Source of the DNA: a virus
Lineage: Duplodnaviria > Caudoviricetes
DNA length: 64,000 bases
Strand: one strand, 5' to 3'
Virus record (IMG/VR): IMGVR_UViG_3300010352_001202
The position numbers were made by a program, and so were the translations under genes. Within the stretch, counting starts at the first letter, position 1, and each line of letters begins with the position of its first letter. Positions 34,915 to 63,350 of this stretch are shown here, piece by piece. The notes beneath the pieces are model-generated. The model had not been told where the DNA came from and searched no databases. It was given only the letters and a program-made list of their open reading frames with translations.

Positions 34915-35064
34915 ATGTTTGCTAACTTGAAACAACTGAACGCGATGCATATGGTGGCTTTAGCCTCCAAGCGCCTCTGCGCCGGTTATTGGGTCGGGTT
35001 TAGTACAAATAATGAACAAGATCCTATTAAGATGGCTTCCTTCTATAAGGAGTCTAGAACCTAA
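34915..35064 (+). CDS. Putative 49-aa attenuator leader peptide
   Basis: MFANLKQLNAMHMVALASKRLCAGYWVGFSTNNEQDPIKMASFYKESRT*; 3' end overlaps the antiterminator strand; weak GGA SD. Confidence 0.65.
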   Translation: MFANLKQLNAMHMVALASKRLCAGYWVGFSTNNEQDPIKMASFYKESRT

Positions 35065-35118
35065 CAAGTCTAGAAACTTTACAAAAGGAAGCCGCTAGGA
35101 AACTAAGCGGCTTTTTTG
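35034..35118 (+). terminator. Alternative antiterminator / intrinsic terminator (attenuator)
   Basis: GGCTTCCTT (35034-42) pairs with AAGGAAGCC (35085-93), which overlaps terminator AAGCCGC-TAGGAAACTAA-GCGGCTT-TTTT. Confidence 0.8.
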
Positions 35119-35438
35119 TTGGCCCCAACAGAGTTGGGAACCAATGTTAGTGGTAGGATAGTGTGAAGATACAGGAAACGAGTTCCTGGGCCTGCACTGT
35201 AAAAAACATGGGTCGAAAGGGCGTGTTCGGGGTATAAAATCCGTGGCGGTAACGCGGAGAGTCAGAACCGGATCGTAAAGTGCATATCCACTTCAGGCGC
35301 TAACTACCGCTGAATGATCTGTTGTGTACTTTACGATAAGCATTGATCTGAGATGGGCTGAAACGCCGCAGACAGTGCTTACAAGAATATATGCATTGTT
35401 GTTACAGTCTGTATAAATATTTACAGAGGACAACAGCA

Positions 35439-35858
35439 ATGATAAAATGTGAAACATGTAGTAATGAAACTTCTAATCAGCGATTCTGTTCTTTGCGTTG
35501 TACTGTTGTATGGAATAATAAACATTCTATGACAGAAGAAACACAACGAAGTAGAGGAAAGAAAAATAGTCAAGGTACAAAAATACCGAACAATCTTTTA
35601 GATATGTCGAGTAGGACAGTTACTAAATTGATTAGAAGAATGAATATAGGTTGTAGTGTATGTGGCTGGAAAGATGCCTTATGTGATATTCATCACATAG
35701 TTCCCAAAAGAAAAGGCGGAACCAACGATAATAGCAACCTAACAATACTTTGCCCAAACCATCATAGACTCATACACGAAGGTGCAGAGTTACCAATAAA
35801 GTCAGTTACTGATCATATTGGAGAGGAATGGAGAAAGCATTACTACGCACATGAATAA
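35439..35858 (+). CDS. HNH endonuclease
   Basis: CSVCGW..DIHHIVPKRKGGTNDNSNLTILCPNHH; GAGGA SD; TATAAATA upstream. Confidence 0.88.
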   Translation: MIKCETCSNETSNQRFCSLRCTVVWNNKHSMTEETQRSRGKKNSQGTKIPNNLLDMSSRTVTKLIRRMNIGCSVCGWKDALCDIHHIVPKRKGGTNDNSNLTILCPNHHRLIHEGAELPIKSVTDHIGEEWRKHYYAHE

Positions 35859-35859
35859 T

Positions 35860-35945
35860 GGGTGTGCCGGGGAGTTGGAGATCCTCACCTGTCTGTAAAA
35901 CAGGCGCCACAGGCTGAATAGGTTCGAATCCTATAACACCCACCA
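35860..35945 (+). tRNA. tRNA-Tyr(GTA)
   Basis: CCTGT-CTGTAAA-ACAGG, long variable arm, GGTTCGAATCC, ACCA. Confidence 0.9.
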
Positions 35946-35952
35946 AGTTTAT

Positions 35953-36040
35953 GGGCTTTTAGGGAAGCGGACAAACTCACCTGCGATGTGAATGCAGGCA
36001 CCTAATGGTTTCGGTAGTTCAAATCTATCAGGGCCCACCA
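35953..36040 (+). tRNA. Atypical tRNA: GTG anticodon on a type II (Tyr-like) body
   Basis: CCTGCG-ATGTGAA-TGCAGG, long variable arm, A73-CCA, no G-1/C73. Confidence 0.6.
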
Positions 36041-36082
36041 AGTTTCGGGATAGACGGAGGGCTAAAAGAGATAAATAAGTGT

Positions 36083-36727
36083 ATGAGCACCTACTATCTC
36101 TATGTAAAAATTCATAATGTCACTGGACTAAGATATCTCGGTCAGACTAAACAAGATCCGCTGAAATATGTAGGATCGGGCATAGATTGGCTAGAACATA
36201 TCAAATGTTATGGATCGGACTTAAAGACAGAAATTATTCTTGAATCTAAATCAAAGAGCGATATTGATAATGCCGGGAGATACTATAGTAACTTCTGGAA
36301 AATTACAACATCTGCAGACGATTTTGGTAATAGAATTTGGGCAAATAGGATAAATGAAACAGGTGGTGGAGGCATTGGTGGTCGGGGAAGATTACCGGGC
36401 TTTTCACATTCCGAAGAAACCAAAGAAAAACTTAGACAAGCAAATAAATCATTTGTAATGTCCGAGGATCGTAGAAGACATTTATCTGAGATCAATACTG
36501 GAAAAACTCATACGGTAGAGACCAAGCAAAAAATTTCTAATGCCAGAAAAGGCAAACCAAGAAGTGCCGAGACTAAAGCAAAAATTTCAGAGTCATTGAA
36601 AAATAGAGTCCCAAGTAGCGCCGCCGCCCCTCAAAAGGCAGGCATTGGTTTTAACGCGAAGTATGGTTTGTTAAAACTCGCCCTTTCGAGACGCAACTAT
36701 CGTACGGTAGTCCTGAATTTAATGTAA
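36083..36727 (+). CDS. GIY-YIG homing endonuclease with NUMOD3 repeats
   Basis: YYLYVKIHNVTGLRYLGQT..YVGSG; HSEETKEKLR, GKTHTVETKQKIS, RSAETKAKIS. Confidence 0.88.
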   Translation: MSTYYLYVKIHNVTGLRYLGQTKQDPLKYVGSGIDWLEHIKCYGSDLKTEIILESKSKSDIDNAGRYYSNFWKITTSADDFGNRIWANRINETGGGGIGGRGRLPGFSHSEETKEKLRQANKSFVMSEDRRRHLSEINTGKTHTVETKQKISNARKGKPRSAETKAKISESLKNRVPSSAAAPQKAGIGFNAKYGLLKLALSRRNYRTVVLNLM

Positions 36728-36783
36728 GTATATGCCCCCGCGGAAGCAGGTGGGCGGAGATGAAAGTTCTCCAATCCTATAAT

Positions 36784-36858
36784 GGGGGCAGCAGAGGGCT
36801 GCGGAGTTGCCTTGCAAGCATCTTGTCTAGAGGGGTTCGATACCCCCGGCCTCCACCA
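36784..36858 (+). tRNA. tRNA-Ala(TGC), reduced D arm
   Basis: Loop CTTGCAA, G3-U70, ACCA. Confidence 0.8.
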
Positions 36859-36864
36859 TTTTCT

Positions 36865-36924
36865 AAAGTGTTCATTCAGCAATCCACAAAAATCAACTTT
36901 TAATTGAAAATAAAACGAACACTG
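36865..36924 (+). ncRNA. CAGCAA module 1 carrying a bare anticodon stem-loop (UUU, Lys-like)
   Basis: AGTGTTC/GAACACT stem, CAGCAA 36877-82, TCAA-CTTTTAA-TTGA. Confidence 0.75.
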
Positions 36925-36934
36925 ATTTATTCAT

Positions 36935-37010
36935 GGCGCAGTAGCATAGCGAATTATGCACCTCCCTGTCTAGGAGGCCGACGAGGGTTTGAGTCCCTTC
37001 TGCGTCGCCA
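36935..37010 (+). tRNA. tRNA-Asp(GTC)
   Basis: CCTCC-CTGTCTA-GGAGG, GCCA end. Confidence 0.85.
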
Positions 37011-37113
37011 GTTATGTGAAGAGTATCGAGCTTACCCTCATAAATACTTTTCACAGTTTAGGTAAGGTATAACGTTGCTTATAACAACTCTACGATACCC
37101 AAACACCTTCTTT

Positions 37114-37170
37114 AAAGAGAACCTACAGCAACTAAAAATTTACTGTAAATGAAACCAAATGTGTTCTCTG
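37114..37170 (+). ncRNA. CAGCAA module 2 carrying a bare anticodon stem-loop (GUA, Tyr-like)
   Basis: AGAGAAC/GTTCTCT stem, CAGCAA 37126-31, TTTA-CTGTAAA-TGAA. Confidence 0.75.
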
Positions 37171-37205
37171 TTTTGAATTTGTAAATATTTGTGTTACAAT
37201 GTGCT

Positions 37206-37619
37206 ATGGCACTCATCAAATGTACTCATTGCGGAAATGATAAAAGAACTTATGGCACAAGTGCTAATTTGTTTTGTTCACGGCAATGCGCTAACGATTT
37301 CCAATATGAACAGCGTGTAGCTGAATGGAAATTATCGGGAGAAAGTACAAGAATTAGCGGCACGCCAGGCTGGTTACGCAGATATTTTTTTGAGAAGCAA
37401 AATGGTAAATGCGCCGGATGTTTGAATGATACCTGGCGAGAACAACCCATAACTCTTGAATTAGAACATAAAGATGGTAACAGTGACCATAATAAGGAAG
37501 AGAATTTAGAACTTCTTTGTCCAAATTGTCACAGTCAGTCATCGACTTATAAAGCAAAGAATAAGGGTAATGGAAGACATTATCGAAGACAGCTTTATAA
37601 GGAAGGTAAAAGTTTTTAG
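37206..37619 (+). CDS. HNH endonuclease
   Basis: CAGC..LELEHKDGNSDHNKEENLELLCPNCHSQ. Confidence 0.88.
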   Translation: MALIKCTHCGNDKRTYGTSANLFCSRQCANDFQYEQRVAEWKLSGESTRISGTPGWLRRYFFEKQNGKCAGCLNDTWREQPITLELEHKDGNSDHNKEENLELLCPNCHSQSSTYKAKNKGNGRHYRRQLYKEGKSF

Positions 37620-37692
37620 CTCTGTTAGTTTAGTGATAGAATGCTGGTTTTGTAGTCCAGATGCGGGAGTTTGATTCTCTCACGGAGCACCA
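37619..37692 (+). tRNA. tRNA-Thr(TGT)
   Basis: Loop TTTGTAG, acceptor GCTCTGT/ACGGAGC, ACCA. Confidence 0.8.
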
Positions 37693-37753
37693 CAAAAAGC
37701 TTGATTGATGTATATAAGATCCTGATTCGACACTACGGATATCAAGCACATTT

Positions 37754-37827
37754 CAGGGTATAATGAAATGGTATCATCCCACCTTTGGAGCGTGGAAGCG
37801 GTAGTTCGATTCTACCTACCCTGACCA
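37754..37827 (+). tRNA. tRNA-Pro(TGG)
   Basis: Loop TTTGGAG, C1-G72, ACCA. Confidence 0.85.
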
Positions 37828-37833
37828 GAATTA

Positions 37834-37907
37834 CAGAGTATAATGAAATGGTATCATCCCACCTTCGGAGCGTGGAAGCCCAAGTTCGATTCTTGGTACT
37901 CTGACCA
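37834..37907 (+). tRNA. tRNA-Pro(CGG), tandem paralog of the preceding gene
   Basis: Loop TTCGGAG; near-identical D and anticodon arms. Confidence 0.85.
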
Positions 37908-38013
37908 ATATAACACATAACAGAAAGCACAATATGGAATTTTTAGCATTCAACTTAATCATGATTATGATAATGTTATCAGCAAGTCTTGCTGAACAAC
38001 TTATCTAAGACAT

Positions 38014-38087
38014 GGCTCTGTAGCTCAATGGTAGAGCACGCGACTGATAATCGCGCGACGAAGGTCCGATTCCTTACGGAGCCACCA
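38014..38087 (+). tRNA. tRNA-Ile(GAT)
   Basis: CGCGA-CTGATAA-TCGCG, ACCA. Confidence 0.9.
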
Positions 38088-38093
38088 TACAAT

Positions 38094-38168
38094 GTCCTGT
38101 TCCACTTCGGGTGAGGTGACCTGCCCTTCAAGCAGAGAAGATGGGTTCGACTCCCATACAGGATGCCA
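38094..38168 (+). tRNA. tRNA-Glu(TTC) with C33
   Basis: CTGC-CCTTCAA-GCAG, GCCA end. Confidence 0.75.
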
Positions 38169-38175
38169 AGTTTAC

Positions 38176-38251
38176 GGGTTTGTAACTCAAATGGCTAGAG
38201 TCCTGCCTCTTAAGCAGCGAGATCCCGGTTCGATGCCGGGCGAACCCACCA
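38176..38251 (+). tRNA. tRNA-Lys(CTT)
   Basis: Loop CTCTTAA, ACCA. Confidence 0.85.
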
Positions 38252-38410
38252 AACAACGGTCCGGACAGAGATCCCTAGGATATATTTCCTCTAGACCACC
38301 ATCAAACCGCTTCCACTTGTTTTCTATTGACATATATAAGCCTAGCGGGCCAATTTTGACCTTTCCACATCACTAAATTATATAAGGATAAAAAAAGGTC
38401 TCTTCAAAAT

Positions 38411-38527
38411 GTCGCTGTAGTGTAAAGGTAGCACAACTAAAAAGGTGATCCTGGCAAGGATACATACAGCAATCTACATTCCATTACAAGGAGTAGGTCC
38501 GGTGTTCGATTCCCGCCGGCGGCACCA
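38411..38527 (+). tRNA. tRNA-Val(TAC)-like gene interrupted between D arm and anticodon arm by a 42-nt CAGCAA module (module 3)
   Basis: Acceptor GTCGCTG/CGGCGGC-ACCA, D arm to 38435, insert 38436-38477, ATTCC-ATTACAA-GGAGT, T loop TTCGATT. Confidence 0.75.
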
Positions 38528-38556
38528 TTGACAAGGTTGAGACTGCATGTAATACT
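38528..38556 (+). promoter_or_regulatory. Possible sigma70 promoter for the vWA gene
   Basis: TTGACA followed 16-17 nt later by TAATACT. Confidence 0.5.
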
Positions 38557-38589
38557 TAGTGCTCAACTTACACACCCTGAAAGGTACAC

Positions 38590-39609
38590 ATGAAGAACTA
38601 CATTGGTATTAGTCGTGACCATAGCGGCTCCATGAGCATGATTGCTAATGCAGCAGCCCGCGATTACAACGACAACATCGCTTCCATTAAGGAAGAAGCC
38701 GGCTCGTTCAACATTGACACTATTGTAAGTGTCATTAAGTGTGGAACTGGTCGCCCTGCGCAAAACCGCTGGGATGTTCAGAATTCGAATGTTACGGCGC
38801 TGAAGCCGCTGACTTCGTACATTGCAGACGGTAACTGCACTCCGCTGTTCGACAGCGTGATGATGCTTATCGACCAAATGGAAAGCGTCCCTGACGCAGC
38901 TGATCCTGAAGTTTCGTTCATGGTTATGGTCGTTACTGACGGCCAGGACAATGCTTCAAACACCAAGGGTCCGCAACTGGCGCAACGCATCAAGTCGCTT
39001 CAGGCAACTGATCGTTGGACTTTCGTCTTCCGTGTTCCGAAGGGCGACAAGGCTCCTCTGGTTCGAATGGGTCTCCCGGCAGGTAACATCCTGGAATGGG
39101 AACAAACCGAACGCGGTGTTCAGCAAGCAACTGTTGCTACCAAGTCGGCTATGCGTGGTTTCTACGCTGCTCGCTCCACTGGTGCAACCAGCACTGACAA
39201 GTTCTACGCCGACATGAGCACTACCACCTTGAATGAAGTGAAGGCCGCCCTGGTTGATATTTCCAAGGAAGTGGATGTGTATGTGGTTGATACGAAGAAC
39301 GACGGTGTCTAAATCAAGGACTTTGTGCTTGCGCAAGGTGTTACCTTTACCAAGGGCTGCGCGTTCTATGAACTGAGCAAGACCGAAACTGTGCAAGAAT
39401 ACAAGCAGATCGCCATCCGTGACAAGATTACGGGCGCTGTCTACAGCGGTTTCGCAGCACGAGATTTGCTTGGTTTGCCGCACTACGGTGAAGTAAAACT
39501 TGCTCCGGGCCAGCACGGTCAGTACAACATCTTCGTCCAGTCGACCTCCATCAACCGCAAGTTGGTGAAGGGCACGAATGTGATGATTTGGACTGCTGTA
39601 ACGGTCTAA
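38590..39609 (+). pseudogene. vWA-domain protein with a single in-frame TAA (39310-39312); pseudogene, sequencing error or readthrough
   Basis: MIDAS motif DHSGSM, TPLFD, VVTDGQDNAS; frame continues past TAA (IKDFVLAQ..AFYELSKTE..) with the same codon style. Confidence 0.7.
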
Positions 39610-39769
39610 GAAACATTAGAGTATGAGATGTATTATAACCATATCCACTACTCTACAGAACATAAGATAGATAACCGGGCCTTGATCATGCAAATCTGTT
39701 GTAAAACAGTAGGTTATCCGTAAGTCGCGGAAGTCAGGACGCCGCGTTATAAATGCGTGGCACGAATAT

Positions 39770-39844
39770 GCGGGTGTGGTGTCAGTGGTAGCATCATAGT
39801 CTTCCAAACTAAAGGTGCGGGTTCGATTCCCGCCATCCGCTCCA
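39770..39844 (+). tRNA. tRNA-Gly(TCC)
   Basis: Loop CTTCCAA, U73-CCA. Confidence 0.9.
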
Positions 39845-39860
39845 AATAGAAAGTATCAAA

Positions 39861-40187
39861 ATGTTTAACTGGTTCAAGTTTAAGCCCAAAGAAGATTGGC
39901 GTCTTGTTAAGACTATTGTCGATGATGTATCTCGCAATAGTGGTAAAGAAAAAGGTAAATTCTATTACCATCTGTTTGAATCTAGTCGTGGAAATAGGCG
40001 CGTAGAGTTTGCTTCTACATTTAGCGATCTGGATAAGGAAGCTTTAGAAAAAGCCGGAAAGCATTTTGACACATATCAAGATATGATTTATCGTTGGGAG
40101 CATGGTCGTGTAGATCCTAACATTCCGCGATATGATCAGATCCCCGAAGAAGAGACAGTAAATGTCCTAAAGGGCAAGATTTCGTAA
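39861..40187 (+). CDS. Hypothetical protein
   Basis: 108-aa ORF between RNA genes. Confidence 0.6.
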   Translation: MFNWFKFKPKEDWRLVKTIVDDVSRNSGKEKGKFYYHLFESSRGNRRVEFASTFSDLDKEALEKAGKHFDTYQDMIYRWEHGRVDPNIPRYDQIPEEETVNVLKGKIS

Positions 40188-40209
40188 TTGTGTGAGGCCT
40201 CACACAAAT

Positions 40210-40297
40210 ATTCGCGTAGTTTAAACGAAAACACCTGCTATTAGGGCATTCAGTTGTTCCAGCAGTAGATATGGGGTTTGGACCCATAGCGACTCTA
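40210..40297 (+). tRNA. Degenerate tRNA-like element with enlarged anticodon arm
   Basis: D-like arm GTTT-AAACG-AAAAC, CTGCT/AGCAG stem closing a 21-nt loop, ATGGG/CCCAT arm, no CCA. Confidence 0.35.
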
Positions 40298-40332
40298 TAA
40301 TCGAAGATCGCTTATTAAATGACAACGATAGA

Positions 40333-40551
40333 GTGACATTTAAGATGCATGATCCTCATAGTAACACTGTTAGAAGATCTTATAATTCAGATAACATAGA
40401 TTTAATTGCGTTATATATTCCCGAACTAAAAGAAATAGCTTTAATTCCTATAGACAAGTTTACCACAAATGATGCGGTTGTTAGAGTTAAGGAATTAGTA
40501 GTAAAAAGAAAAAATGCAGCAATATTGTTTTCGGACTTTATTGTATGGTAA
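40333..40551 (+). pseudogene. C-terminal fragment of a PD-(D/E)XK homing-type endonuclease
   Basis: RRSYNSDNIDLIALYIPELKEIALIP resembles the C half of this family; N half absent. Confidence 0.5.
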
Positions 40552-40556
40552 GTTAT

Positions 40557-40631
40557 GCCCGGTTAGCTCAATGATAGAGCAATTGCTTGATAGGCGATAG
40601 GTTGTAGGTTTGACTCCTACACTGGGTACCA
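40557..40631 (+). tRNA. tRNA-Ile(GAT), second copy
   Basis: ATTGC-TTGATAG-GCGAT, ACCA. Confidence 0.8.
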
Positions 40632-40637
40632 AACAAT

Positions 40638-40709
40638 AGTGTATCTCCGTGCGGACTTCAATCCTTGTTGCGGAACGAAGACTAGGTTAGAAACCTATAT
40701 ACACTGCCA
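40638..40709 (+). ncRNA. D-armless tRNA-like RNA with GGA-CTTCAA-TCC hairpin
   Basis: AGTGTAT/ATACACT acceptor + GCCA, TAGG-TTAGAAA-CCTA T-like arm. Confidence 0.5.
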
Positions 40710-40715
40710 GAGTAT

Positions 40716-40781
40716 TGATGTATCCAGTGGCTGTAGGCTTCGACTAGGAGCATAGACTAGGTTCGATTCCTATATACATCA
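40716..40781 (+). ncRNA. tRNA-like RNA (acceptor + T arm), paralog of the preceding element
   Basis: TGATGTAT/ATACATCA helix, AGACTAGGTTCGATTCCTAT. Confidence 0.5.
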
Positions 40782-40792
40782 GACAAAACAAT

Positions 40793-40871
40793 TCCGCAGA
40801 AACCGAGCAAGGTGCATGGTCTTGACTGTTAATCAATGGTTAGAGTGGTTCGATTCCACTGTGCGGAGCCA
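40793..40871 (+). tRNA. tRNA-Asn(GTT)
   Basis: TTGA-CTGTTAA-TCAA, GCCA end. Confidence 0.88.
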
Positions 40872-40880
40872 GATTTTTAT

Positions 40881-40953
40881 ATGTTTATGGTGCAGTGGCA
40901 GCACTCCCTCCTTCCCAGAGGGCGACCGGGGTTCGAATCCCTGTAAACTTCTA
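40881..40953 (+). tRNA. Degenerate tRNA-Gly(TCC)-like gene without CCA
   Basis: CCCTC-CTTCCCA-GAGGG and GGTTCGAATCC; weak acceptor stem. Confidence 0.5.
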
Positions 40954-41052
40954 TAAAACAAATGTAGAGTATTGTGTGGCCACACAATACCTAAGCAGGA
41001 GTATAGCAAGTTCCAAGGGGGAATCGTTTGCATCCTACTCCGAATCTATTAT

Positions 41053-41126
41053 GAGTCATAAGTGTTACGGTAGCACATCAGTCTCCAAAACTGAGGGCCG
41101 GGGTTCGACTCCCTGACGACTCGCCA
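41053..41126 (+). tRNA. tRNA-Trp(CCA)
   Basis: TCAGT-CTCCAAA-ACTGA, G73-CCA; U11-A24. Confidence 0.9.
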
Positions 41127-41176
41127 ACAATCCGACTTTAGCTGATGTGGTCATAGCGCCTGTCATAAATATAATT

Positions 41177-41833: not shown

Positions 41834-41863
41834 AACCAGGTTCGATTCCTGGACCTCGCACCA
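41785..41863 (+). tRNA. tRNA-Phe(GAA), overlapping the endonuclease 3' end
   Basis: GCTGC-CTGAAGA-GCAGT, ACCA. Confidence 0.85.
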
Positions 41864-41943
41864 ACATATTGTTCGATTCCTGGAGGTCGGGCCAGGTTTA
41901 CTCTTCCTCGAGATAAATAAAAGTATAATCTCGGAGAGAAAAC

Positions 41944-42993: not shown

Positions 42994-42997
42994 AGTT

Positions 42998-54968: not shown

Positions 54969-54969
54969 T

Positions 54970-56408: not shown

Positions 56409-56410
56409 TA

Positions 56411-57376
56411 ATGATCCACAGAAATTATTATACCTGTGGTTTCAACGCAAATTCGAGTCAATGTATTCGAACTGATATATCGGATAAGTGGAGTATAAAT
56501 TTTGATACTAAGGTTATAGAGAAAAGACCTCTAAAAACATTTCGAGAAGAGGTATTACATTCTTGCGAATTAATATATGAAGAGTTCGGCAAATACACAC
56601 CGAAACTAAATTTGTACTTTAGCGGCGGCATGGATTCCGAATGCATGCTTCGTAGTTTTGTAGAATTAGGTATACCTGTAAATCCTATAGTTATTACTCA
56701 TTATTACAGTCCGTTTGCTGACGAAACATTAAATGCTATGCGAGTATGCAACGAACTTTCGGTTAAACCGTTAATCTTTGATTTGAATCTTAGGGAATTA
56801 TACAGTAATAAGAAATTGTATGAGTTAGGTATAAAGTATCAATCGCCAAGACTAGGCATGTTAGAATTATTACATGTTATGGAACAAATTTCTGAACCTA
56901 GTGTATTAGCCGACGATATACAGATGCTTCACATTTCGTCAGATAAGAATTTACTGAATATAAATGAAACTGATTTTTTAGAGTGGATGTATGAAATACG
57001 GGAGGACGAGGACGGTGTTTTCTACAGGTATGAATGTATTACCGGAATACCGACAATTTCTGACTTCTTTAGGTATACACCGCAATCTTGGGCTTCGATG
57101 ATTCTCACCGAAGATATAAAGGACATTATCTTCAATTATAGAGGAAAGGCTTCTGCAACATCGACAAAAAATACAATGATGGCCCGAGAATTTAATGTAC
57201 TGTGGAGGCAAAAGACGGGTGTATTTTTCTCCCCTCAGCATTGGGAAATCAGAAACAGAATTAAGCATGATTTAGAAAATGAGTTATATCCATTTTCAAC
57301 AGCATTAATTACATACGAAAAGTTATTACAATTATTAGGATATCATTATGCTCTGCAGAATACTAACACAAAGTGA
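56411..57376 (+). CDS. N-type ATP pyrophosphatase-like protein, distant paralog of 54135..54968
   Basis: LYFSGGMDSE PP-loop; C-terminal RQKTG. Confidence 0.68.
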   Translation: MIHRNYYTCGFNANSSQCIRTDISDKWSINFDTKVIEKRPLKTFREEVLHSCELIYEEFGKYTPKLNLYFSGGMDSECMLRSFVELGIPVNPIVITHYYSPFADETLNAMRVCNELSVKPLIFDLNLRELYSNKKLYELGIKYQSPRLGMLELLHVMEQISEPSVLADDIQMLHISSDKNLLNINETDFLEWMYEIREDEDGVFYRYECITGIPTISDFFRYTPQSWASMILTEDIKDIIFNYRGKASATSTKNTMMAREFNVLWRQKTGVFFSPQHWEIRNRIKHDLENELYPFSTALITYEKLLQLLGYHYALQNTNTK

Positions 57377-57893
57377 TTACATGGTGTGCAGGGAATTGTA
57401 TGATAAATTCACTGATGCAGATCCACTGCGTCCACCGATTCCCACATTGAATCGGTATTACTTTGGCGACGACGAACCCCTATCTATGGTAATCGGTGCA
57501 TTCGATGAGTACGGAGTATTATCTGTTTGTGTTTTTGTTATATTTTCTAAACACGATCGTTCTATATCTATTCGTTATGTAATGAAGCATCCGTTTGCCG
57601 ATAAGAGCATGGTAGTTGGCGTCCTTGAATTTGTTGCCAATATGTCAAGAAATAGTAATTACTGTAAGATGTATATAAGTTACTTCAACAACCGCGCAGC
57701 AGCATGGGAGAGACTATTAAGAAATTCGGAAATTTTTAATAGATATACCGCCGTGGTCGAGGAAGTAATACCTGCTTCACGCAAGTCTTCTTTTACTAGG
57801 TACTGGACAGAAATGCAGGGTTGTAAAATTTCTCTAGAGCCAATGACAATTAAGATGTATTCATTAAAACAAGAGTTTAGACCTATTCTATAA
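57348..57893 (+). CDS. Hypothetical protein, possibly GNAT fold
   Basis: Coupled ORF; VIGAFDEYGVL beta pattern. Confidence 0.45.
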   Translation: MLCRILTQSDYMVCRELYDKFTDADPLRPPIPTLNRYYFGDDEPLSMVIGAFDEYGVLSVCVFVIFSKHDRSISIRYVMKHPFADKSMVVGVLEFVANMSRNSNYCKMYISYFNNRAAAWERLLRNSEIFNRYTAVVEEVIPASRKSSFTRYWTEMQGCKISLEPMTIKMYSLKQEFRPIL

Positions 57894-57902
57894 AGGATTA
57901 TT

Positions 57903-58484
57903 ATGTTAGCAAATTTCTTCTCAATCGGAGATAGAAACTATCTCAACAATGCAGTTGTTATCTCCGATGCATTAACTATTATTAGCAAGACATTCGGGAA
58001 TGTAGCTGATTTTAAGATACAATTTAGAAAGCCATTTCTTTCGCAGGGCGAGTTTAAGCTTAGTACAGAAAAACTCGATGGCCATATTACAGGACAGTTT
58101 AAGAAGAACGATATGGTGTTTTTCTTTGCATATACACCTACAGATATTTCCTTAGAAGTTAAGGATGCAAACGGTGACGCAGTAAAGAATGATGTTACGC
58201 CGTTTAATGTATGCTATCATGTAACTGATGTATGCCGTGGCGCAATTGAAGAAGGATTTGAAAAGGTTTACGGGCCAATGACAACAAAGGATAAAGTTAT
58301 CTTTGTTATGTTTGAAATTCCATGTACAGCAGTGTTCAACAACATTATTATTGACGGTGCAATGCCTCCTATGACTATTACTCCTGCAGAGCAGACAGGA
58401 GATAGGAGATTCAAGGTGTCTGTTTATGTTGGCGGAAAATTATTGGGACATAGGCACAGCACAGTAAAGGAATTTATTGTATGA
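57903..58484 (+). CDS. Hypothetical protein, paralog of 54970..55551
   Basis: Collinear similarity over the full length. Confidence 0.65.
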   Translation: MLANFFSIGDRNYLNNAVVISDALTIISKTFGNVADFKIQFRKPFLSQGEFKLSTEKLDGHITGQFKKNDMVFFFAYTPTDISLEVKDANGDAVKNDVTPFNVCYHVTDVCRGAIEEGFEKVYGPMTTKDKVIFVMFEIPCTAVFNNIIIDGAMPPMTITPAEQTGDRRFKVSVYVGGKLLGHRHSTVKEFIV

Positions 58485-59341
58485 AAAAATACTGGGGAGA
58501 AACGGAAGATAGCCACTTAAGATTATGGACCTCTGATGTCTATCTCCAATATGCGCCTGTAAAACATACCATAACAGAAGAAGGGTATCGTGGAGATAAG
58601 TTACAATCAACAGATGCATTGTTTTTAGGAACATGTGATGTAATGTCAAGCCTTCCCGATAGTAATCTTAGATGGTCTGCATTAGTTCATAAGGAGAAAT
58701 TCTCAGATCAACCATTTATACCGCTGGGTACTGTTGGTTCTGGATTGCACGCAATGGTACGGCGTTTGTATTCATTTATACAAAATCACGGCGCCCCGAA
58801 ATATGTATACATGACTGTTCCGAGATTTGATGGATATGAATATGTAAACAAATCAGGCAAGACATACAGCGTTAGTTCAAGAAAAGGAACAGCAAAGTTC
58901 CTAAAATATGCTAACCTAATAAACGAAGAAGATCTTAGTATATGGTTATCTCAGATTGAAGCAAACAAGAATTTAGAGAATATACATAACAACCAGTATG
59001 TACTTGAAGAAAGATTTTCATTTATAGAACTGTTGTGCAAGGCGCACAACATAGAACTAAAATGGAGCTTCAATCCCAGCGATGCTGGCATCGTATTGCT
59101 GCATAGAAATCTAGCTATATTTGAGCATCTTTCTCCGTTTATGAAAGATTCGTTTGCCGGCTTGGTCGAAATCAAGGATCAGGAAAAAGATAGATCAATT
59201 GGTATAGAAACCCACCGTGCTATCTATCAGCAATTTATTAATCCGGAATCGTGGAATTATGCTACACTTCGAACCAGGGCAGAATATAATCTCGAATGGT
59301 TAAAAACTCGTTACGGTGATAACCTTATCAATAGGGAATAA
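58481..59341 (+). CDS. Hypothetical protein, paralog of 55548..56408
   Basis: Same length (286 aa) and shared motifs. Confidence 0.65.
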   Translation: MKKYWGETEDSHLRLWTSDVYLQYAPVKHTITEEGYRGDKLQSTDALFLGTCDVMSSLPDSNLRWSALVHKEKFSDQPFIPLGTVGSGLHAMVRRLYSFIQNHGAPKYVYMTVPRFDGYEYVNKSGKTYSVSSRKGTAKFLKYANLINEEDLSIWLSQIEANKNLENIHNNQYVLEERFSFIELLCKAHNIELKWSFNPSDAGIVLLHRNLAIFEHLSPFMKDSFAGLVEIKDQEKDRSIGIETHRAIYQQFINPESWNYATLRTRAEYNLEWLKTRYGDNLINRE

Positions 59342-59376
59342 TAACGATAAATACCCATACATAGGAGATATTGAGT

Positions 59377-59784
59377 ATGGGATTTATAACATTATTGATG
59401 GGTAATAAAAACCTGATATTAGTCGGGTTGTTACTAGCGGCTTTTGCTGGAACAGGCATTTATGTAAAAGTCCTGAAACATAATATCGAAAGTTGCCAAC
59501 AAGAAAAGGCACTGATCTCGGCAAAACTAGAAGTTTCGCAAGAGGCTGTAAAAAACCTGCAGGCAGCCATTACTGAACAGAATACCGCGATTGATAAGTT
59601 TAAGTCCGCAGCGGACGAAAGAGTAAAAGCAAATCAAGTAGAGCTAAACAAAGCTCAGAATACAGCAAATGCATTCAAGCAGCAGGCAACTGATATAATG
59701 AAGTTTGTTCCACAGCCCGGTGTTCCTAAATGTGATTCTGCAAACTCCCTAATCAATATGGAGATCAAAAATGCTAAAAAGTAA
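59377..59784 (+). CDS. Inner-membrane spanin (Rz-like)
   Basis: N-terminal TM helix, long coiled coil, Cys near C-terminus, overlapped by a lipoprotein gene. Confidence 0.75.
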   Translation: MGFITLLMGNKNLILVGLLLAAFAGTGIYVKVLKHNIESCQQEKALISAKLEVSQEAVKNLQAAITEQNTAIDKFKSAADERVKANQVELNKAQNTANAFKQQATDIMKFVPQPGVPKCDSANSLINMEIKNAKK

Positions 59785-60049
59785 TCTATTGGCATTATCC
59801 TTGGCTGTGCTATTATCTGCATGCGCATCGGGACCTGCACCTGTAATGGCTCCACTTATTCAAAAAGTTGAAGTTCCTATTGCTGTTCCTTGTAAAGTAG
59901 CCGTTCCTAAGTTACCGTCTTTCAATTTTGATGAACTAAATATTGATCAGGATATTTACGAAAAGGTACGCGCATTGCTTGTAGATAGGAAGTTACATCT
60001 CGGATATGAGGTTGAACTTTTGGCAGCATTAAATTCCTGTATAAAATAA
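59771..60049 (+). CDS. Outer-membrane spanin lipoprotein (Rz1-like)
   Basis: Lipobox LSAC, Pro-rich segment, KVRALL..YEVELLAALNSC. Confidence 0.78.
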   Translation: MLKSNLLALSLAVLLSACASGPAPVMAPLIQKVEVPIAVPCKVAVPKLPSFNFDELNIDQDIYEKVRALLVDRKLHLGYEVELLAALNSCIK

Positions 60050-60057
60050 AATCTATT

Positions 60058-60629
60058 ATGCTTGTAAAGATAATAACTGTTGTAGATAATGATAAGCTTT
60101 TAGCAGCATTAGAAGAAATTTCGATTATTAGCTGGGAAACTATTGTTGATGAAAGAGCCAGAGATATATTTACTACCAGTAGAAGTATTTCTCTTAGAAC
60201 ACATAAAATTACCGGTGCACCACCTAAAACAATCGATGAATCATCTAGGATTTTAGATTGCACCGATATTGTAGTTAATAAGCAGAAATATGTACAATGC
60301 TATAATTAGCCGAATGGGCATATAAACAGGTAGGCGGGATATCACTAGGACGGGTAATGATTGTAAATCTGCTACCCAACGGATATGTTTCTTCGCATAT
60401 CGATCCCGGCAGTTATTTTGCAAAATATTCAAGATTTCATATACCGTTAATAACAAATGAGCAAGTTGTATTTTCTCGATACGAAGATACAGAAAAAGAA
60501 CATATGCCGTATGGGCATCTTTGCCAACTTAATAACTTGGATATGCATATGGTAAGAAACAACAGTGATCAGCCAAGGATTCATATTATTGCTGACATTG
60601 AAGTACCGGGCGGTAACTCTATATTCTGA
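60058..60629 (+). pseudogene. Asp/Asn beta-hydroxylase-like 2OG-Fe(II) oxygenase split by a 1-nt frameshift near 60306
   Basis: Adding one base joins ..VQCYN to LAEWAYKQVGGISLGRVMIVNL..HID..RFHIPL..H.VRN..RIHII. Confidence 0.7.
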
Positions 60630-60797
60630 ATCCTTGCGATGTGTAGCCATTTGTAGTAAAGTAGCGATCTGAGGTGTTATCAGACCAATTTACGGTGGTA
60701 GCGCACTAGGTAGTAAGGGCTGCATCCCTGCTGCAAACAAACGCAGGTAAAGCGGTAGGTCGGCTTGCCGGTAACATCTCAACTAAATTTACGATTT

Positions 60798-61046
60798 TGA
60801 TTACTTGGACAATCGCTGCTGTAATGGTAGAGGAAGTTCGGGTCTGCAAAGAGCAGGGTTTGTCGCTCTGTGGGAGAATATCTAATTATCGGCTGCCATA
60901 AAGAAAAGGATGATATGGCCCCAGGTGTTGACCGGCGAAAGCCCATGTCTCACCCTGCCCGATAGCCGCAACTATTCGTTTGTACCACAACGACTCCGCA
61001 GTAACACAAACAGTTCTCGCTGACGCTGCTCGCCGAGGGAATGGTT
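60798..61046 (+). ncRNA. 3'-truncated RNase P RNA-like copy
   Basis: GGACAATCGCTG..GAGGAAGTTCGGGTCT 5' signature; shares GTGGGAGA and AACACAAACAG with the second copy; no 3' P4 strand. Confidence 0.65.
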
Positions 61047-61048
61047 AT

Positions 61049-61246
61049 TTTGGTGTCCGATCTAACGCTGGCAACAGAGGAAGTTCAGGACTTGCGCCGA
61101 GTGCGAGTGGGAGACCTTGGTCGTTATTACCACCGTGATATAGCAAGCAACACAAACAGAACCTGGGAACATTCGGCCTATAGGTTCGGGTTGTGGCAAA
61201 GATGAATGTTAGAGTTGAAACAGAATCCTGGCTATGAGACACCAAA
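61049..61246 (+). ncRNA. rnpB: Compact RNase P RNA (about 198 nt)
   Basis: P1 TTTGGTGTC/GACACCAAA; P2 TCTAAC/GTTAGA; P4 GAGGAAGTTCAGGA with ACAGAATCCTGGCTA; AGATGAATG junction. Confidence 0.85.
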
Positions 61247-61288
61247 TTTTTTATACGGGTTGTAGCACTATATTAGATAAATAGTATT

Positions 61289-61897
61289 ATGTTCAAACCC
61301 ACATACCTATACATAAAAACTCATAATGTTACCGGATTGAAATATTTTGGTAAAACTGTAGGTGATCCCTTTAGATATAAAGGATCGGGTGTAAGATGGC
61401 TGAATCATCTATCTGTACACGGCAATAAGGTGACCACTGAAATAATCGGGCATTATGAAGTATTAGAAGAATGTAATAAGGCAGCATTAGAGTTTAGTGA
61501 AAAATACAATATAGTAAAGAGTGACGAATGGGCCAACCTTATTGTCGAAGACGGTCTGATGGGAGGATTCACTGAAGATCACGGTAAGAAGATAAAAGAA
61601 ATATGGAAAAATCTTACCGAAGAAGAAAAAGACATAAGAAGGCAAAAAGCCAACCCCTGGAATAATAAAACAGAAGAAGAGATAAGTCGATATAAAAAGA
61701 ATCTTCAAGATTCTATGATTGATATGTATCAATCGATTGCCGGTAAAGAATTATTAGAACATAAGAAAAAAGTAGGAAAATCTTTATTAAAGAATGGAAA
61801 AAGAATGCTATCCGATGAAGCACGACAAAGAATGAAAGAATCGGCGTATAGGACAAACGAATTAAGACGAATAAAGAAGGAGAAAGATAATGCGTAG
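61289..61897 (+). CDS. GIY-YIG homing endonuclease
   Basis: YLYIKTHNVTGLKYFGKT..YKGSGVRW..WANLIVEDG. Confidence 0.88.
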   Translation: MFKPTYLYIKTHNVTGLKYFGKTVGDPFRYKGSGVRWLNHLSVHGNKVTTEIIGHYEVLEECNKAALEFSEKYNIVKSDEWANLIVEDGLMGGFTEDHGKKIKEIWKNLTEEEKDIRRQKANPWNNKTEEEISRYKKNLQDSMIDMYQSIAGKELLEHKKKVGKSLLKNGKRMLSDEARQRMKESAYRTNELRRIKKEKDNA

Positions 61898-62558
61898 AAT
61901 TTTAGAAATCCGCGCAGCAGAAGGCGGAGAAGATAGCAAGCTATTTACGGTAGATCTTGCACAAGCATACCAACGCCATTTTGATCGAGTCGGCTGACTT
62001 AATCGAATAGTAAAGAATGTCCCTGGCGAACTTTATATAGAAGTTGAAGGGCAAAGTTTACACCATCTAGAAAACGAGGCCGGCGGCCATCGCATACAAA
62101 GAGTCCCTCCAACAGAGCGTAAGGGCAGAGTTCATACTAGCACCGTAACGGTTGCAGTCATTGATCCCGAATTACAGGTCAAAGAATACAAAGATTCAGA
62201 CTTTAGGATAGAATGGTATAGTGGTACAGGTGCAGGCGGGCAACACAGAAACAAACATCAAAATTCGTGTCGAATCACTTATACGCCCACAGGCCAAACT
62301 GCTACTGCCCAGTGTCGTTCTCGACAAAATAGCCTAGAACAGGCTAAAGCAGCATTAATAGAACAGTTAAAAAGCGAGGATCACAGACAGAAGAAATTTA
62401 GTCTCGATTCTGAAAGAAAACAGCAAGTTGGTTCTGGAATGCGCGGCGACAAGATTAGGACATATCGTTTTCAAGATGATGTAGTAAAAGATCACCTTAC
62501 AGGAAAAAGTGGTAGCGTAAAGCAGGTTTTACGCGGATACTTTGACTTAATGTGGTAG
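61890..62558 (+). CDS. RF1-type class I peptide chain release factor lacking domain 1, with in-frame TGA at codon 36 (61995-61997)
   Basis: LEIRAAEGGEDS..YQRHFDRVG*LNRI..EAGGHRIQRVPPTERKGRVHTSTVTVAV..GAGGQHRNK..RGDKIRTYRF; missed by the ORF track. Confidence 0.9.
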
Positions 62559-62568
62559 GAGAAAAATA

Positions 62569-62997
62569 TTGCCAAAAAGTAAAGGAATAAGAGAATCATA
62601 TCGATTTGCTCGGGAGGCCGCTCGTATCGCGGGAAATAAATTCTATATCGGTCAAATCTGTAAGAAACATCCGGAATTGTTAGGCCAACGGCAGGTTAAT
62701 AATTGTATCTGTATTGAGTGTAGAAAAGAATATTCAAGACTGCAAAGTACTGGATTTTCGGTAGAATTATTTAATTTGGTATTAAAGCAACAAGAAAATA
62801 GTTGTGCTATATGCAGAGATAAATTTGATAATACTGATGCACACGCAGACCATAATCATGTAACTAAGCAACCACGCGGAATACTGTGCCGAAAATGTAA
62901 TTTAATGATAGGGTTTGCACGAGATAATCCGGAAATTTTACAAAATGCTATAGAATATCTTGCTAAACCAGACCTAATTTTTGGTTGTGATAAATAA
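62569..62997 (+). CDS. Endonuclease VII-like HNH nuclease
   Basis: QENSCAIC..HADHNHVTKQPRGILCRKCNLMIG..DN. Confidence 0.85.
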   Translation: MPKSKGIRESYRFAREAARIAGNKFYIGQICKKHPELLGQRQVNNCICIECRKEYSRLQSTGFSVELFNLVLKQQENSCAICRDKFDNTDAHADHNHVTKQPRGILCRKCNLMIGFARDNPEILQNAIEYLAKPDLIFGCDK

Positions 62998-63029
62998 AAA
63001 TATATATTATAGTTTTAGTTATTGTTGTA

Positions 63030-63350
63030 ATACGGACTGATTCAAAGGATTCAAGACGCGGGTTCGATTCCCGCCGGCTCCACCATTAAGCACATTTGCC
63101 GAATGTTCTTAATAATGGGGCCGACCAGGTTTCGATTGGGTCGCGGAGAGGATGATACGCAACACGCCAGGCGATCGGCGTTAATGAAGCAAAACTCTGT
63201 AAATGCAAACGCAAATACATTCGAGACAGTAGCCCTTGACCTTTCAGCTCTTGCTGACAGCGATATGGCTCTTGCTGCTTAATACCCAGCATACTCCGGG
63301 GCTGGTTAGCCTTGTAACCCAATAACCTTATAGGGACTTCGGTCCCTATA
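63030..63350 (+). ncRNA. ssrA: Two-piece (circularly permuted) tmRNA
   Basis: Acceptor piece ends GACGCGGGTTCGATTCCCGCCGGCTCCACCA (63085); hairpin spacer; coding piece starts GGGGCCGA (63117); tag ANANTFETVALDLSALADSDMALAA* (63205-63282). Confidence 0.92.

Follow-up and report, generated by a model that had tools for sequence, protein, structure and literature searches.

A probable translation island in an uncultured huge phage: a UGA-interrupted RF1 gene and an attenuator-like leader within a loosely linked toolkit

Do the tRNA genes, unusual RNAs and release factor (RF) gene at positions 34,915 to 63,350 of a 64,000-nucleotide stretch of phage DNA (the window) form a single translation surveillance and rescue system, as the initial annotation proposed? 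The phage behind this stretch is uncultured, has a genome of about 370 kb and originates from activated sludge. Most of the parts listed for the proposed system are real, but in related phages they lie apart or are missing. We consider it reasonably probable that the stretch is a translation island, i.e. a clade-typical, loosely linked toolkit of separately evolving translation-support genes with two candidate regulatory devices. This estimate applies jointly to the toolkit, to the two local devices and to a Y-RNA-like mimic that is not a decoder. The stretch is not one co-inherited, co-regulated machine, and an integrated inducible circuit is unlikely. Two of the proposed gates, namely a leader ORF with competing structures and a UGA in the RF gene, are nevertheless real and conserved features at the level of sequence.

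The interrupted release factor gene

The strongest result of this analysis is an RF1 gene with an invariant TGA at codon 36. The gene (61890..62559, plus strand, as are the features below unless noted) comprises 222 codons and encodes an RF1 homologue without domain 1. It matches NF001859 (RF1) with 181 bits over model positions 107-332, as well as solved RF1 chains (E 4e-37), starting at their residue ~88-126, and it carries the PPT and GGQ motifs, the consensus in at least 90% of 94 aligned sequences. Its single in-frame TGA (61995-61997) aligns to a conserved tryptophan of RF1. A first set of 80 loci all had the TGA at codon 36, as did all 93 distinct genes subsequently compared from related huge phages, which bears out the earlier description of a UGA-interrupted release factor. 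The identity among the 93 proteins ranges from 53% to 100%, with a median of 66%. More distant relatives lacking domain 1 (45-49% identity) have no TGA, and the best GenBank phage match shares 40% identity. Full-length database entries of the protein are gene calls in which the TGA was translated as Trp. The dN/dS ratio is 0.07 upstream and 0.12 downstream of the TGA, with dS close to 1, and purifying selection acts on either flank in the same reading frame. The TGA is followed by A in 45 contexts, by G in 16 and by C in 8, and never by T.

The output of this gene would require in-frame readthrough of UGA-36, at which host RF2 would compete with a near-cognate tRNA-Trp(CCA) of host or phage origin, and the balance between the two would set the amount of RF produced. 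As a result of this competition, the factor would be scarce while RF2 works well and more abundant when UGA termination is slow. Given the retained PxT region, the RF1-type product itself would read UAA and UAG. No conserved readthrough-stimulating RNA structure was found around the UGA, so that the efficiency of readthrough may be low and simply constitutive.

Leader, tRNA array and tRNA-like modules

The tRNA array (35860..49409) extends over about 14 kb and contains 29 tRNA genes according to ARAGORN at default settings, to which Rfam adds two further matches in the region. CCA is encoded by 26 of the 29 genes. The full tRNA set announced for this array holds for 17 amino acids at default thresholds, while Ala, Asn and Arg are covered at relaxed thresholds only. 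The array is interrupted by homing-endonuclease ORFs (HNH, NUMOD3, endonuclease I/VII-type and PD-(D/E)XK) and by a QueC-like ORF.

The evidence on the leader of this array is based on seven related sequences. Two promoter-like sites (34674..34860), TTGACA-17 nt-TAGAAT at 34674 and TTGACA-17 nt-TAAACT at 34767, are each followed by an exact copy of a 20-nt motif (34705-34724 and 34841-34860), which occurs nowhere else in the window, where the chance expectation is 0. Both sites and motif are conserved in the seven phages. The leader ORF (34915..35064) has 49 codons and homologues with 59-80% identity and in-frame indels. All 20 amino acids are used in 7 of 7 leader peptides, compared with 1.3-3.3% of same-length windows from the phage's own proteins. 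The last codons of the ORF make up one arm of a long hairpin, a candidate antiterminator (35034..35093), and the stop codon is located in the loop of its inner hairpin; 35034-35042 pairs with 35085-35093, 35046-35049 with 35078-35081 and 35053-35058 with 35069-35074. In the leader alignment, 98.5% of its cells are paired, with compensatory changes at two pairs, and sliding the 3' partner as a control reduces pairing to 29-58%. An intrinsic terminator follows (35089..35119; 35089-35095 pairs with 35107-35113, then a T run), which is 100% paired and shows one compensatory pair. The 5' arm of the terminator and the 3' arm of the hairpin share 5 nt, and the two structures are mutually exclusive. 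The whole arrangement of leader ORF, overlapping hairpin and terminator is kept in the seven phages, and the first tRNA genes lie 350-750 nt 3' of the leader wherever the contig permits this check.

At the sequence level, a candidate attenuator heading the tRNA array is supported by the competing structures, the compensatory changes in both helices and their conservation. A ribosome reaching the leader stop codon would melt the hairpin and allow the terminator to form, whereas a ribosome held earlier in the leader would let the hairpin form, and transcription would continue into the tRNAs. Alternatively, the product of the leader ORF may be an ordinary small protein, with a terminator after its gene.

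The window also contains a repeated RNA module, composed of a closing stem plus CAGCAA and bearing hairpins or tRNA parts. Copies occur, for example, at 36867-36923, 37116-37169, 43001-43101, 43119-43235, 45777-45831 and 48041-48098. These RNAs form a family that displays anticodon-like hairpins or entire tRNA bodies. The copy at 43119..43235 (plus strand) had been described as a permuted UGA-reading tRNA, and the described anatomy is present: the closing stem with CAGCAA, an anticodon-like arm (loop CUUCAAA), a T arm, an acceptor stem and a D arm. Its decoding role, however, does not stand. A loop seals the acceptor stem, which comprises 6 pairs and one mismatch and lacks the CCA found in most tRNAs of the array, and UCA is unique to this phage, with GUA, UAG or GAA taking its place in orthologues. 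The sealed acceptor stem covaries among these orthologues. By its topology, which is like that of YrlA-type Y RNAs, the module is a predicted tRNA mimic of the Y-RNA kind.

The orthologues with GUA, UAG or GAA loops adjoin RF genes that contain the UGA. As UCA is replaced in them, the module cannot be a general decoder of UGA-36, a role that is thereby ruled out. Nor was any tRNA(UCA) found in the phage's contig or in a complete relative, even at relaxed thresholds (G000 and G001), and about 160 RF loci yielded none beyond one doubtful reverse-strand call. The proposed link between the permuted RNA and the interrupted RF gene is thus lost.

RNase P RNA, tmRNA and the case for a single circuit

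The RNase P RNA of the initial annotation was recovered upstream of the RF gene. A 5' remnant (60796..61040), comprising the P1 5' strand, the P4 5' strand GAGGAAGUUCGGG and a reduced specificity region but missing the 3' partner strands, is followed by a compact RNA of about 205 nt (61041..61250) with its own P1, both P4 strands, AGAUGAAUG and ACAGAAUCCUGGCUA, and no specificity domain. The RF00010 match at 61049-61250 scores 42.7 bits (E 3e-10, model positions 1-367) and, though it is under the Rfam threshold of 100, we regard it as a real RNase P RNA homologue. At the same place, the RNA of relatives is about 345 nt long and scores 61-68 bits. Compared with the long form, a P4 pair has changed from G-C to A-U, and two P1 pairs are compensatory against L007. 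These comparisons point to an ancestral RNA of about 345 nt that was rearranged in the phage's lineage into a dead 5' remnant and a compact copy without specificity domain. No RnpA encoded by the phage was found. Between the RNase P RNA and the RF gene lies a 202-aa ORF (61289..61897), whose stop overlaps the RF start and whose position in relatives is taken by just a tRNA. It has no Pfam match, its N-terminus is GIY-YIG-like by eye, and it is probably an inserted homing endonuclease.

The tmRNA claim was confirmed by a permuted two-piece gene (62971..63354) that exceeds both Rfam cut-offs (RF04321, 132.4 bits, cut-off 47; RF01850, 127.6 bits, cut-off 84) and encodes a 25-residue tag with ALAA at its end. 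An endonuclease VII-type ORF (62569..62997) separates it from the RF gene. In G001, SmpB is found in this position, and RF, SmpB and tmRNA are adjacent.

The reading that would unite all these parts holds that translation failure relieves the attenuator and releases replacement tRNAs and decoy RNAs, that the permuted UCA RNA becomes an opal suppressor once RNase P has opened it, and that the resulting UGA readthrough switches on a rescue RF beside tmRNA, the whole forming one inducible counter-defence circuit. We consider it unlikely. In its favour, the leader does resemble an attenuator and the UGA is invariant, the gene order of G001 agrees with it, and tmRNA and a Ro60-like protein occur in 5 of 5 complete relatives, all of them with the RF. 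The opening of a sealed acceptor stem also has a precedent in the YrlA Y RNA of M. smegmatis, which is cut in vivo by RNase P and then gains CCA (PMC4201824). Against this stand the restriction of UCA to the module of this phage and the mismatched acceptor stem without CCA, and all five complete relatives keep the UGA with RNase P RNA absent or a remnant, the sole match being a 111-nt remnant in one of them. A search for the repair enzymes expected of such a system succeeded in part: RtcB, Rnl and Pth2 are each present in 3 of 4 complete relatives, all three being absent from G005, whereas the CCA-adding enzyme, like SmpB, occurs in 1 of 4.

Linkage is equally loose. Of 80 loci, 56 have the RF gene among tRNAs and just 8 have it next to tmRNA, its distance to tmRNA being 1.4 kb in two genomes and from 140 kb to more than 250 kb in three, and RtcB is located about 185 kb from the RF in G001. 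No regulatory motif is common to the leader and the RF region, and no promoter or terminator was found to delimit the segment that begins with RNase P RNA and ends with tmRNA. Moreover, some 11 kb of the range (49424..60629) are occupied by a radical-SAM/B12 cluster, comprising two class-B (B12-binding) radical-SAM enzymes, a GNAT, a PP-loop ATPase, an Asp/Asn hydroxylase fragment and unknown proteins; these enzymes have no demonstrated link to translation and do not evidently belong to the translation set. Co-occurrence across complete relatives thus shows patchy distribution (RNase P RNA, SmpB, RtcB, Rnl, Pth2 and CCA-adding enzyme) rather than a conserved module. Some functional coupling of the RF to rescue and repair is possible, given the shared occurrence of tmRNA and Ro60-like protein, the adjacency in G001 and a distant RF relative encoded 2 kb from a kinase/phosphatase/Rnl1 fusion.

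It also seems quite improbable that a dedicated, undetected phage suppressor reads the UGA in a timed code switch, as in the TGA-recoded Jade phages, so that RF1 is made once UGA means Trp, perhaps with a few late genes. The code-change module of Jade phages consists of a suppressor tRNA, TrpRS and RF1, and phage suppressor tRNAs are often missed (bioRxiv 10.1101/2021.08.26.457843); relatives of our phage do have tRNAs of the suppressor type, whose anticodons are CUA and UUA. However, besides the missing tRNA(UCA), TGA is the normal stop in 117 of 321 long ORFs (36%) of G001, code 11 gives clean reading frames for the structural genes of the window, and by inspection no other gene of the 99-kb contig, in which code 11 gives a coding density of about 0.9, has an internal TGA between conserved coding flanks. 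The RF1 gene of Jade phages is itself in standard code, and no TrpRS was seen in the present case. Finally, although mobile endonucleases abound here and at least one RNA gene has decayed (the RNase P 5' remnant), the idea that the RF gene is a pseudogene or assembly error and its neighbouring RNAs hitchhikers in a homing-endonuclease-rich region is effectively refuted by 93 independent, distinct sequences from many samples, each of which keeps a single TGA, always at this codon, with dN/dS near 0.1 on either side.

Comparison with known systems

The toolkit that we favour has published counterparts. Passages of PMC7162821 and PMC7824862 on huge and jumbo phages describe large tRNA complements, RF1/RF2, tmRNA, RNA ligases and a ROT/TROVE protein whose partner RNA resembles a tRNA, and interpret such sets as translation support and as a counter to RNase effectors. 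That tRNAs and factors for RNA repair or rescue help large phages against defences aimed at translation is thus an idea already in print there. The matching passages make no mention of a UGA-interrupted RF1, of a leader-ORF/terminator device before a tRNA array or of a phage RNase P RNA, and the term "RNase P" has zero occurrences in the two papers. PrfH (RFH), which acts with RtcB in the rescue of nuclease-damaged ribosomes (PMC6514570), is likewise an RF paralogue without domain 1 in a setting of conflict and repair, and the Rnl1-type fusion near the distant RF relative recalls this pairing. The phage protein differs in scoring 181 bits on RF1 against 40.5 on PrfH (cut-off 166.65) and in keeping the RF1 codon-reading motif, and RtcB is remote in G001 and absent from G005.

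The leader resembles attenuators of the trp, his and pheST type in its short ORF, in a hairpin overlapping an intrinsic terminator and in the position of the stop codon, where a ribosome that terminates would block the antiterminator. It differs in that every amino acid occurs at least once instead of a run of one regulatory codon, in that its predicted targets are tRNAs and in that a pause hairpin (1:2 type) is without support. RNase P RNAs without specificity domain are known from type T of Thermoproteaceae and from engineered catalytic-domain-only forms. The compact RNA shares with these a size of about 200 nt, the retention of P1-P4 and the catalytic core and the absence of P7-P14, but it is phage-encoded and adjoins a dead 5' copy, and the bacterial type-A-like RNA from which it derives, about 345 nt long, persists in sister phages.

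In the module at 43119-43235, the T arm is followed by the sealed acceptor-like stem-loop and then by the D arm, and a terminal stem closes the whole, as in the YrlA-type Y RNAs to which Ro60 binds (PMC4201824); the Ro60-like protein of the relatives fits this likeness. In contrast to these Y RNAs, its closing stem has CAGCAA instead of GNCGAAN0-1G, it has a full anticodon-like arm and no Rfam Y-RNA match, and its putative partner is a DUF2828 protein, not a canonical TROVE protein.

As in Jade phages (bioRxiv 10.1101/2021.08.26.457843), a phage-encoded RF1 is linked here to UGA, which would be read as Trp; however, the lysis genes are recoded in Jade phages, whereas here the UGA is in the RF gene alone. 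A giant amoeba-virus RF gene, as cited in PMC5009743, is expressed through stop-codon readthrough plus frameshifting and is thus another virus-encoded RF that needs readthrough, although it specifies a eukaryote-type factor of a eukaryotic virus and not, with a single UGA, a bacterial RF1 homologue of phages. The same 2016 review stated that versions of bacterial RF1 and RF2 genes with an in-frame stop and readthrough were unknown (PMC5009743). The autoregulation of prfB (RF2) by programmed +1 frameshifting offers a further parallel, with an early in-frame UGA and an increase in full-length synthesis when RF2 termination at UGA is slow. In the phage gene, the downstream frame is unchanged, which implies readthrough instead of frameshifting, and the RF1-type product should not read UGA, so that control would be exerted by RF2 and not by the product itself.

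The UGA-interrupted release factor gene

This analysis revealed that the RF1-like gene at 61890-62559 (+), which comprises 222 codons, carries an in-frame TGA at codon 36 (UGA-36) that is invariant among its relatives. The TGA is aligned with the tryptophan of the 'GW' motif of RF1. Of the 256 relatives present in IMG/VR, the best 80 were examined first, followed by a second set built around the most divergent one. In every gene examined, codon 36 is TGA and no further internal stop occurs (163 genes, representing 93 distinct DNAs and 88 distinct proteins), with protein identities falling to 53%. With synonymous sites saturated (dS about 1), the dN/dS ratio of the part preceding the TGA is 0.07 and that of the following part 0.12. 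It follows that both parts are translated in a single frame and that the stop is selected for; the initial annotation of this gene as a UGA-interrupted release factor was upheld. The next base after the TGA is never T, and no start codon was found downstream of it. Neither a SECIS element nor another readthrough-stimulating structure was detected at UGA-36, as RNAalifold gave no consensus structure for the 88 contexts; the minimum free energy downstream of the TGA is within about 1 SD of that of shuffled sequences. The 222-aa database entries are gene calls in which TGA is read as tryptophan, while on long contigs the gene is split or truncated by gene callers, with products of 163-183 aa, such that these release factors are under-reported in phage catalogues. 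More distant RF1 homologues without domain 1 (45-49% identity) have ordinary codons instead of TGA, so that the TGA has a single origin within this clade. One such homologue, 49% identical and free of TGA, was found on a Logan contig with P0123 (L197), where a 791-aa RNA-repair fusion protein (kinase/phosphatase/Rnl1) is encoded at a distance of about 2 kb.

With regard to the class of the protein, its similarity to RF1 extends from domain 2 onward. The prfA model NF001859 (TIGR00019) matched with 181.3 bits, not reaching its cut-off of 400, and since the match covers model positions 107-332, the N-terminal domain 1 is missing. The PCRF and RF-1 domains were recognised by PF03462 (80.9 bits) and PF00472 (61.4 bits), respectively. 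The GGQ motif is kept in at least 90% of 94 aligned sequences, the consensus of which also shows a conserved QRVPPTE...GRVHTS region that aligns with the PxT region of RF1. A single-sequence AlphaFold model was unusable (pLDDT 45.6), and the identity of the protein rests on its homology to solved RF1 chains (E 4e-37). Assignment to PrfH (TIGR03072) is disfavoured by a score of 40.5 bits, below the cut-off of 166.65, and by the lack of a neighbouring RtcB gene: there is none in the 99-kb contig containing the window (G000) or in the complete relative G005, and in the nearest complete relative, G001, RtcB is about 185 kb from the release factor. The 202-aa ORF at 61289-61897, between the RNase P RNA and the release factor gene, was rejected as a detached domain 1 on account of its endonuclease-like (GIY-YIG-like) N-terminus and the absence of a Pfam hit; its stop codon overlaps the start codon of the release factor gene. 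An endonuclease VII-type ORF (62569-62997) sits between the release factor gene and the tmRNA, where G001 has SmpB (261639-262043).

A global change in the genetic code was ruled out as an explanation of the TGA. The ORF coverage gained with codes 4 and 15 comes mostly from spurious frames, and TGA often serves as a genuine stop: it ends 117 of the 321 ORFs of at least 150 aa in G001 and closes many ORFs of the window. The standard code gives a clean reading of the window genes at a coding density of about 0.9, and the combination of in-frame TGA in many genes with a tRNA(UCA), by which code-4 recoded phages are recognised, was absent. The large ORFs at 25218-27161 and 27171-32042, which share a frame and are separated by a TGA, were also considered as a readthrough pair and rejected, being two genes with their own starts.

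ARAGORN, at default and relaxed thresholds, found no convincing tRNA(UCA) in G000, G001 or about 160 release factor loci, and a scan for UCA anticodon-loop patterns returned only the sealed module at 43144. The phage encodes a tRNA-Trp(CCA) at 41053-41126; such a gene lies at most 3 kb from the release factor gene in only 7 of 80 loci. We infer that UGA-36 would be read by a near-cognate tRNA-Trp, in competition with RF2. Five related phages (L192-L196; for example G001, 255570-256111) have a tRNA(CUA) gene no more than about 150 nt downstream of a Pth2-like gene of about 105 aa, and one of the five also has a tRNA(UUA). The in-frame TAG at codon 36 of the Pth2-like gene of G001 was dismissed as the mark of a second gated rescue gene, as it is missing from four homologues.

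As to the origin of this DNA, the window comes from an IMG/VR virus contig of 99,215 bases with a CheckV completeness of 26%, and G001, which is 369 kb long and has terminal repeats, is syntenic with it. Only activated-sludge metagenomes contained the DNA (two DNA runs and no RNA run for 60700-63400), and activated sludge is the likely source of the phage. No megablast match to 12 kb was found among GenBank phages, nor any close relative of the release factor, the best tblastn match being 40% identical.

The permuted tRNA-shaped RNA and the RNase P RNA

The RNA at 43119-43235 had been described as a permuted UGA-reading tRNA, the decoding of UGA-36 by which was central to the proposed circuit. 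The permuted order of its parts stands, but a conserved loop closes its acceptor stem and the CCA end is missing, whereas an opal suppressor would have an open 7-bp acceptor stem ending in CCA, and the UCA is not kept. Orthologues on four other contigs, beside UGA-containing release factor genes, carry GUA, UAG or GAA instead, while retaining the handle (a closing stem plus CAGCAA), the T and D arms and the sealed acceptor stem, which shows covariation and has an invariant loop. These varying triplets contradict the proposed link to the release factor. As judged from its sequence, the RNA mimics a tRNA, its anticodon-like loop is variable, and it is not a general decoder of UGA-36.

This RNA is a member of a family defined by a stem plus CAGCAA, and its T arm, sealed acceptor-like stem, D arm and closing terminal helix follow the layout of the tRNA-mimicking YrlA-type Y RNAs (PMC4201824). 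In contrast with Y RNAs, the GNCGAAN0-1G Ro60-binding motif is replaced by CAGCAA in the handle, and no Rfam Y-RNA family matched the module. Each of the five complete relatives encodes a Ro60-like DUF2828 protein, at a distance of 1-168 kb from the release factor gene. Given that one Y RNA is opened by RNase P and then given a CCA end (PMC4201824), the same processing is conceivable here, and this RNA may undergo both steps in this single phage. Sub-threshold matches to the Rfam family Dicty_Class_I_RNA, likewise defined by a terminal stem beside a CAGCAA-containing motif, were observed at 36868-36924, 43120-43167 and 45778-45832 (at most 36 bits; gathering score 41.5).

The RNase P RNA of the initial annotation is a genuine homologue. 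The match to RF00010 (bacterial RNase P RNA class A) at 61049-61250 extends over the whole model and comprises the P1-P4 core, in which GAGGAAGUUCAGG, AGAUGAAUG and ACAGAAUCCUGGCUA align with the P4 strands and J18/2. Nevertheless, it scores 42.7 bits, under the gathering score of 100, and lacks the specificity domain (P7-P14), about 140 model positions being reduced to about 49 nt. Four sister phages have an RNase P RNA of about 345 nt just upstream of the release factor gene (61-68.5 bits). In the alignment, the window and a related locus, L007, keep the 5' two-thirds of this longer gene (60796-61040 in the window), whereas its 3' strands are gone; the remnant is followed by the self-contained copy of about 205 nt, which has its own P1. 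Compared with the long form, a G-C pair of P4 has become A-U on both strands, and P1 differs from that of L007 by two compensatory pairs. Folded alone, the 205-nt RNA has an unremarkable energy (z -0.37), as expected because it is pseudoknotted. Four of the five complete relatives showed no RNase P RNA match and the fifth only a 111-nt remnant, and an RnpA gene was looked for in five phage genomes without success. A literature search by term turned up no published description of a phage RNase P RNA. An RNase P RNA shrunk to about 205 nt would represent a natural experiment on the minimum size of the ribozyme.

The tRNA array, its leader and the tmRNA

ARAGORN identified 29 tRNA genes at 35860-49409, of which 26 encode the CCA end, and Rfam added two more matches. 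Despite their number, they do not amount to the full set previously claimed, as only 17 amino acids are covered at default thresholds, and alanine, asparagine and arginine appear only at relaxed ones. The array is interrupted by HNH, NUMOD3, endonuclease I/VII-type, PD-(D/E)XK and QueC-like ORFs. A tRNA-like sequence at 45098-45167 (38.7 bits, Rfam) has an anticodon arm that is 3 nt short, in which ARAGORN reads a 2-base anticodon.

Upstream of the array, two promoter-like sites, each followed by an identical 20-nt motif, precede a leader ORF of 49 codons (34915-35064). The final codons of this ORF make up one arm of a long hairpin (35034-35093), the 3' arm of which has 5 nt in common with an intrinsic terminator (35089-35119). 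This layout is kept in seven phages, in which pairing is preserved at 98.5% in the hairpin (two compensatory pairs) and 100% in the terminator (one compensatory pair), and tRNA genes lie within 350-750 nt of the leader wherever visible. With its short ORF and an intrinsic terminator that overlaps an alternative hairpin, the leader has the architecture of an attenuator, and these seven related sequences fit a transcription attenuator. The stall-sensing device proposed earlier retains its ORF and competing structures but has no run of regulatory codons. Each of the seven homologous peptides contains all 20 amino acids (those of L102 and L103 were translated by hand), a content found in 1.3-3.3% of equal-length windows of the phage's own proteins. 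The leader suggests that the tRNA supply of phages may be under regulation rather than constitutively expressed. Between the terminator and the first tRNA, a non-coding segment (35120-35390) with no Rfam hit is conserved in the window, G001, L102, L104 and L105 and may be a further structured RNA. Upstream of the promoters, 34232-34700 is gene-free, and 34346-34656 is 85% identical to G001.

The permuted tmRNA at 62993-63373 was found by ARAGORN and confirmed by Rfam as a two-piece tmRNA (RF04321, 132.4 bits, gathering score 47; RF01850, 127.6 bits); its tag reading frame ends in ALAA. The array is separated from the RNase P RNA, release factor and tmRNA genes by 11 kb, and the class-B radical-SAM, GNAT and PP-loop genes that fill this interval are not evidently connected with translation. 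The region (49424-60629) encodes a pair of paralogous radical-SAM enzymes of the B12-binding type, a GNAT, a hydroxylase fragment, a PP-loop ATPase weakly similar to MnmA and several unknown proteins, a gene content that points to a modification or biosynthesis pathway.

Distribution of the parts and comparison with known systems

The proposal that all these parts form one inducible counter-defence circuit is not supported by the complete relatives, in which they are patchy and scattered. The release factor gene lies among tRNAs in 56 of 80 loci and beside the tmRNA in 8. The tmRNA is present in all five complete relatives, at about 1.4 kb from the release factor gene in G001 and adjacent to it (<100 nt) in G002, and at 140 kb to more than 250 kb in G003-G005. 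The gene search suggested in the initial annotation found RtcB, Rnl (PF09414) and Pth2 each in three of four complete relatives, but a CCA-adding enzyme in only one, and G005 lacks RtcB, Rnl and Pth2 altogether. SmpB occurs in one of four, namely G001, between the release factor gene and the tmRNA; it was not found in G000, G002, G004 or G005, and host SmpB may stand in as the partner of the phage tmRNA. No promoter or terminator was found to delimit the stretch from RNase P to tmRNA, and within the window the 20-nt motif is confined to the leader. By gene content and order, the parts are a clade-typical repertoire whose members are gained, lost and moved independently. The initial observation as a whole is partly confirmed. 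As a caution, neighbourhood in a single genome had been read as a circuit, which is not preserved among the relatives.

It is possible, though we consider it rather unlikely, that this phage clade monitors the translation capacity of its host at two points, the leader and the UGA of RF1, and responds. The leader peptide would need all 20 aminoacyl-tRNAs, and a shortage of any one would lead to transcription into the phage tRNA array. The invariant UGA would sense RF2 or termination capacity, and faltering termination would yield more of a domain-1-less, RF3-independent release factor acting on UAA and UAG. If true, these would be the first release factor gene of the bacterial world under stop-codon readthrough control and the first viral attenuator governing tRNA supply.

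Translation support and counter-defence are roles already given to such repertoires in PMC7162821 and PMC7824862, and the concept is also in print in PMC6514570; the RF1 UGA, the phage's RNase P RNA and the leader device each represent a novel variant. According to a 2016 review of recoding, control of the readthrough type is expected for bacterial release factor genes but unknown for RF1 and RF2, and the only readthrough release factor gene cited there is that of a giant amoeba virus (PMC5009743). The RF1 UGA described here, retained in more than 90 distinct sequences, offers a natural system in which to study the sensing of UGA termination efficiency. In Jade phages, RF1 is part of a code-change module, yet its own gene is written in the standard code, whereas the release factor gene described here contains a UGA (bioRxiv 10.1101/2021.08.26.457843).
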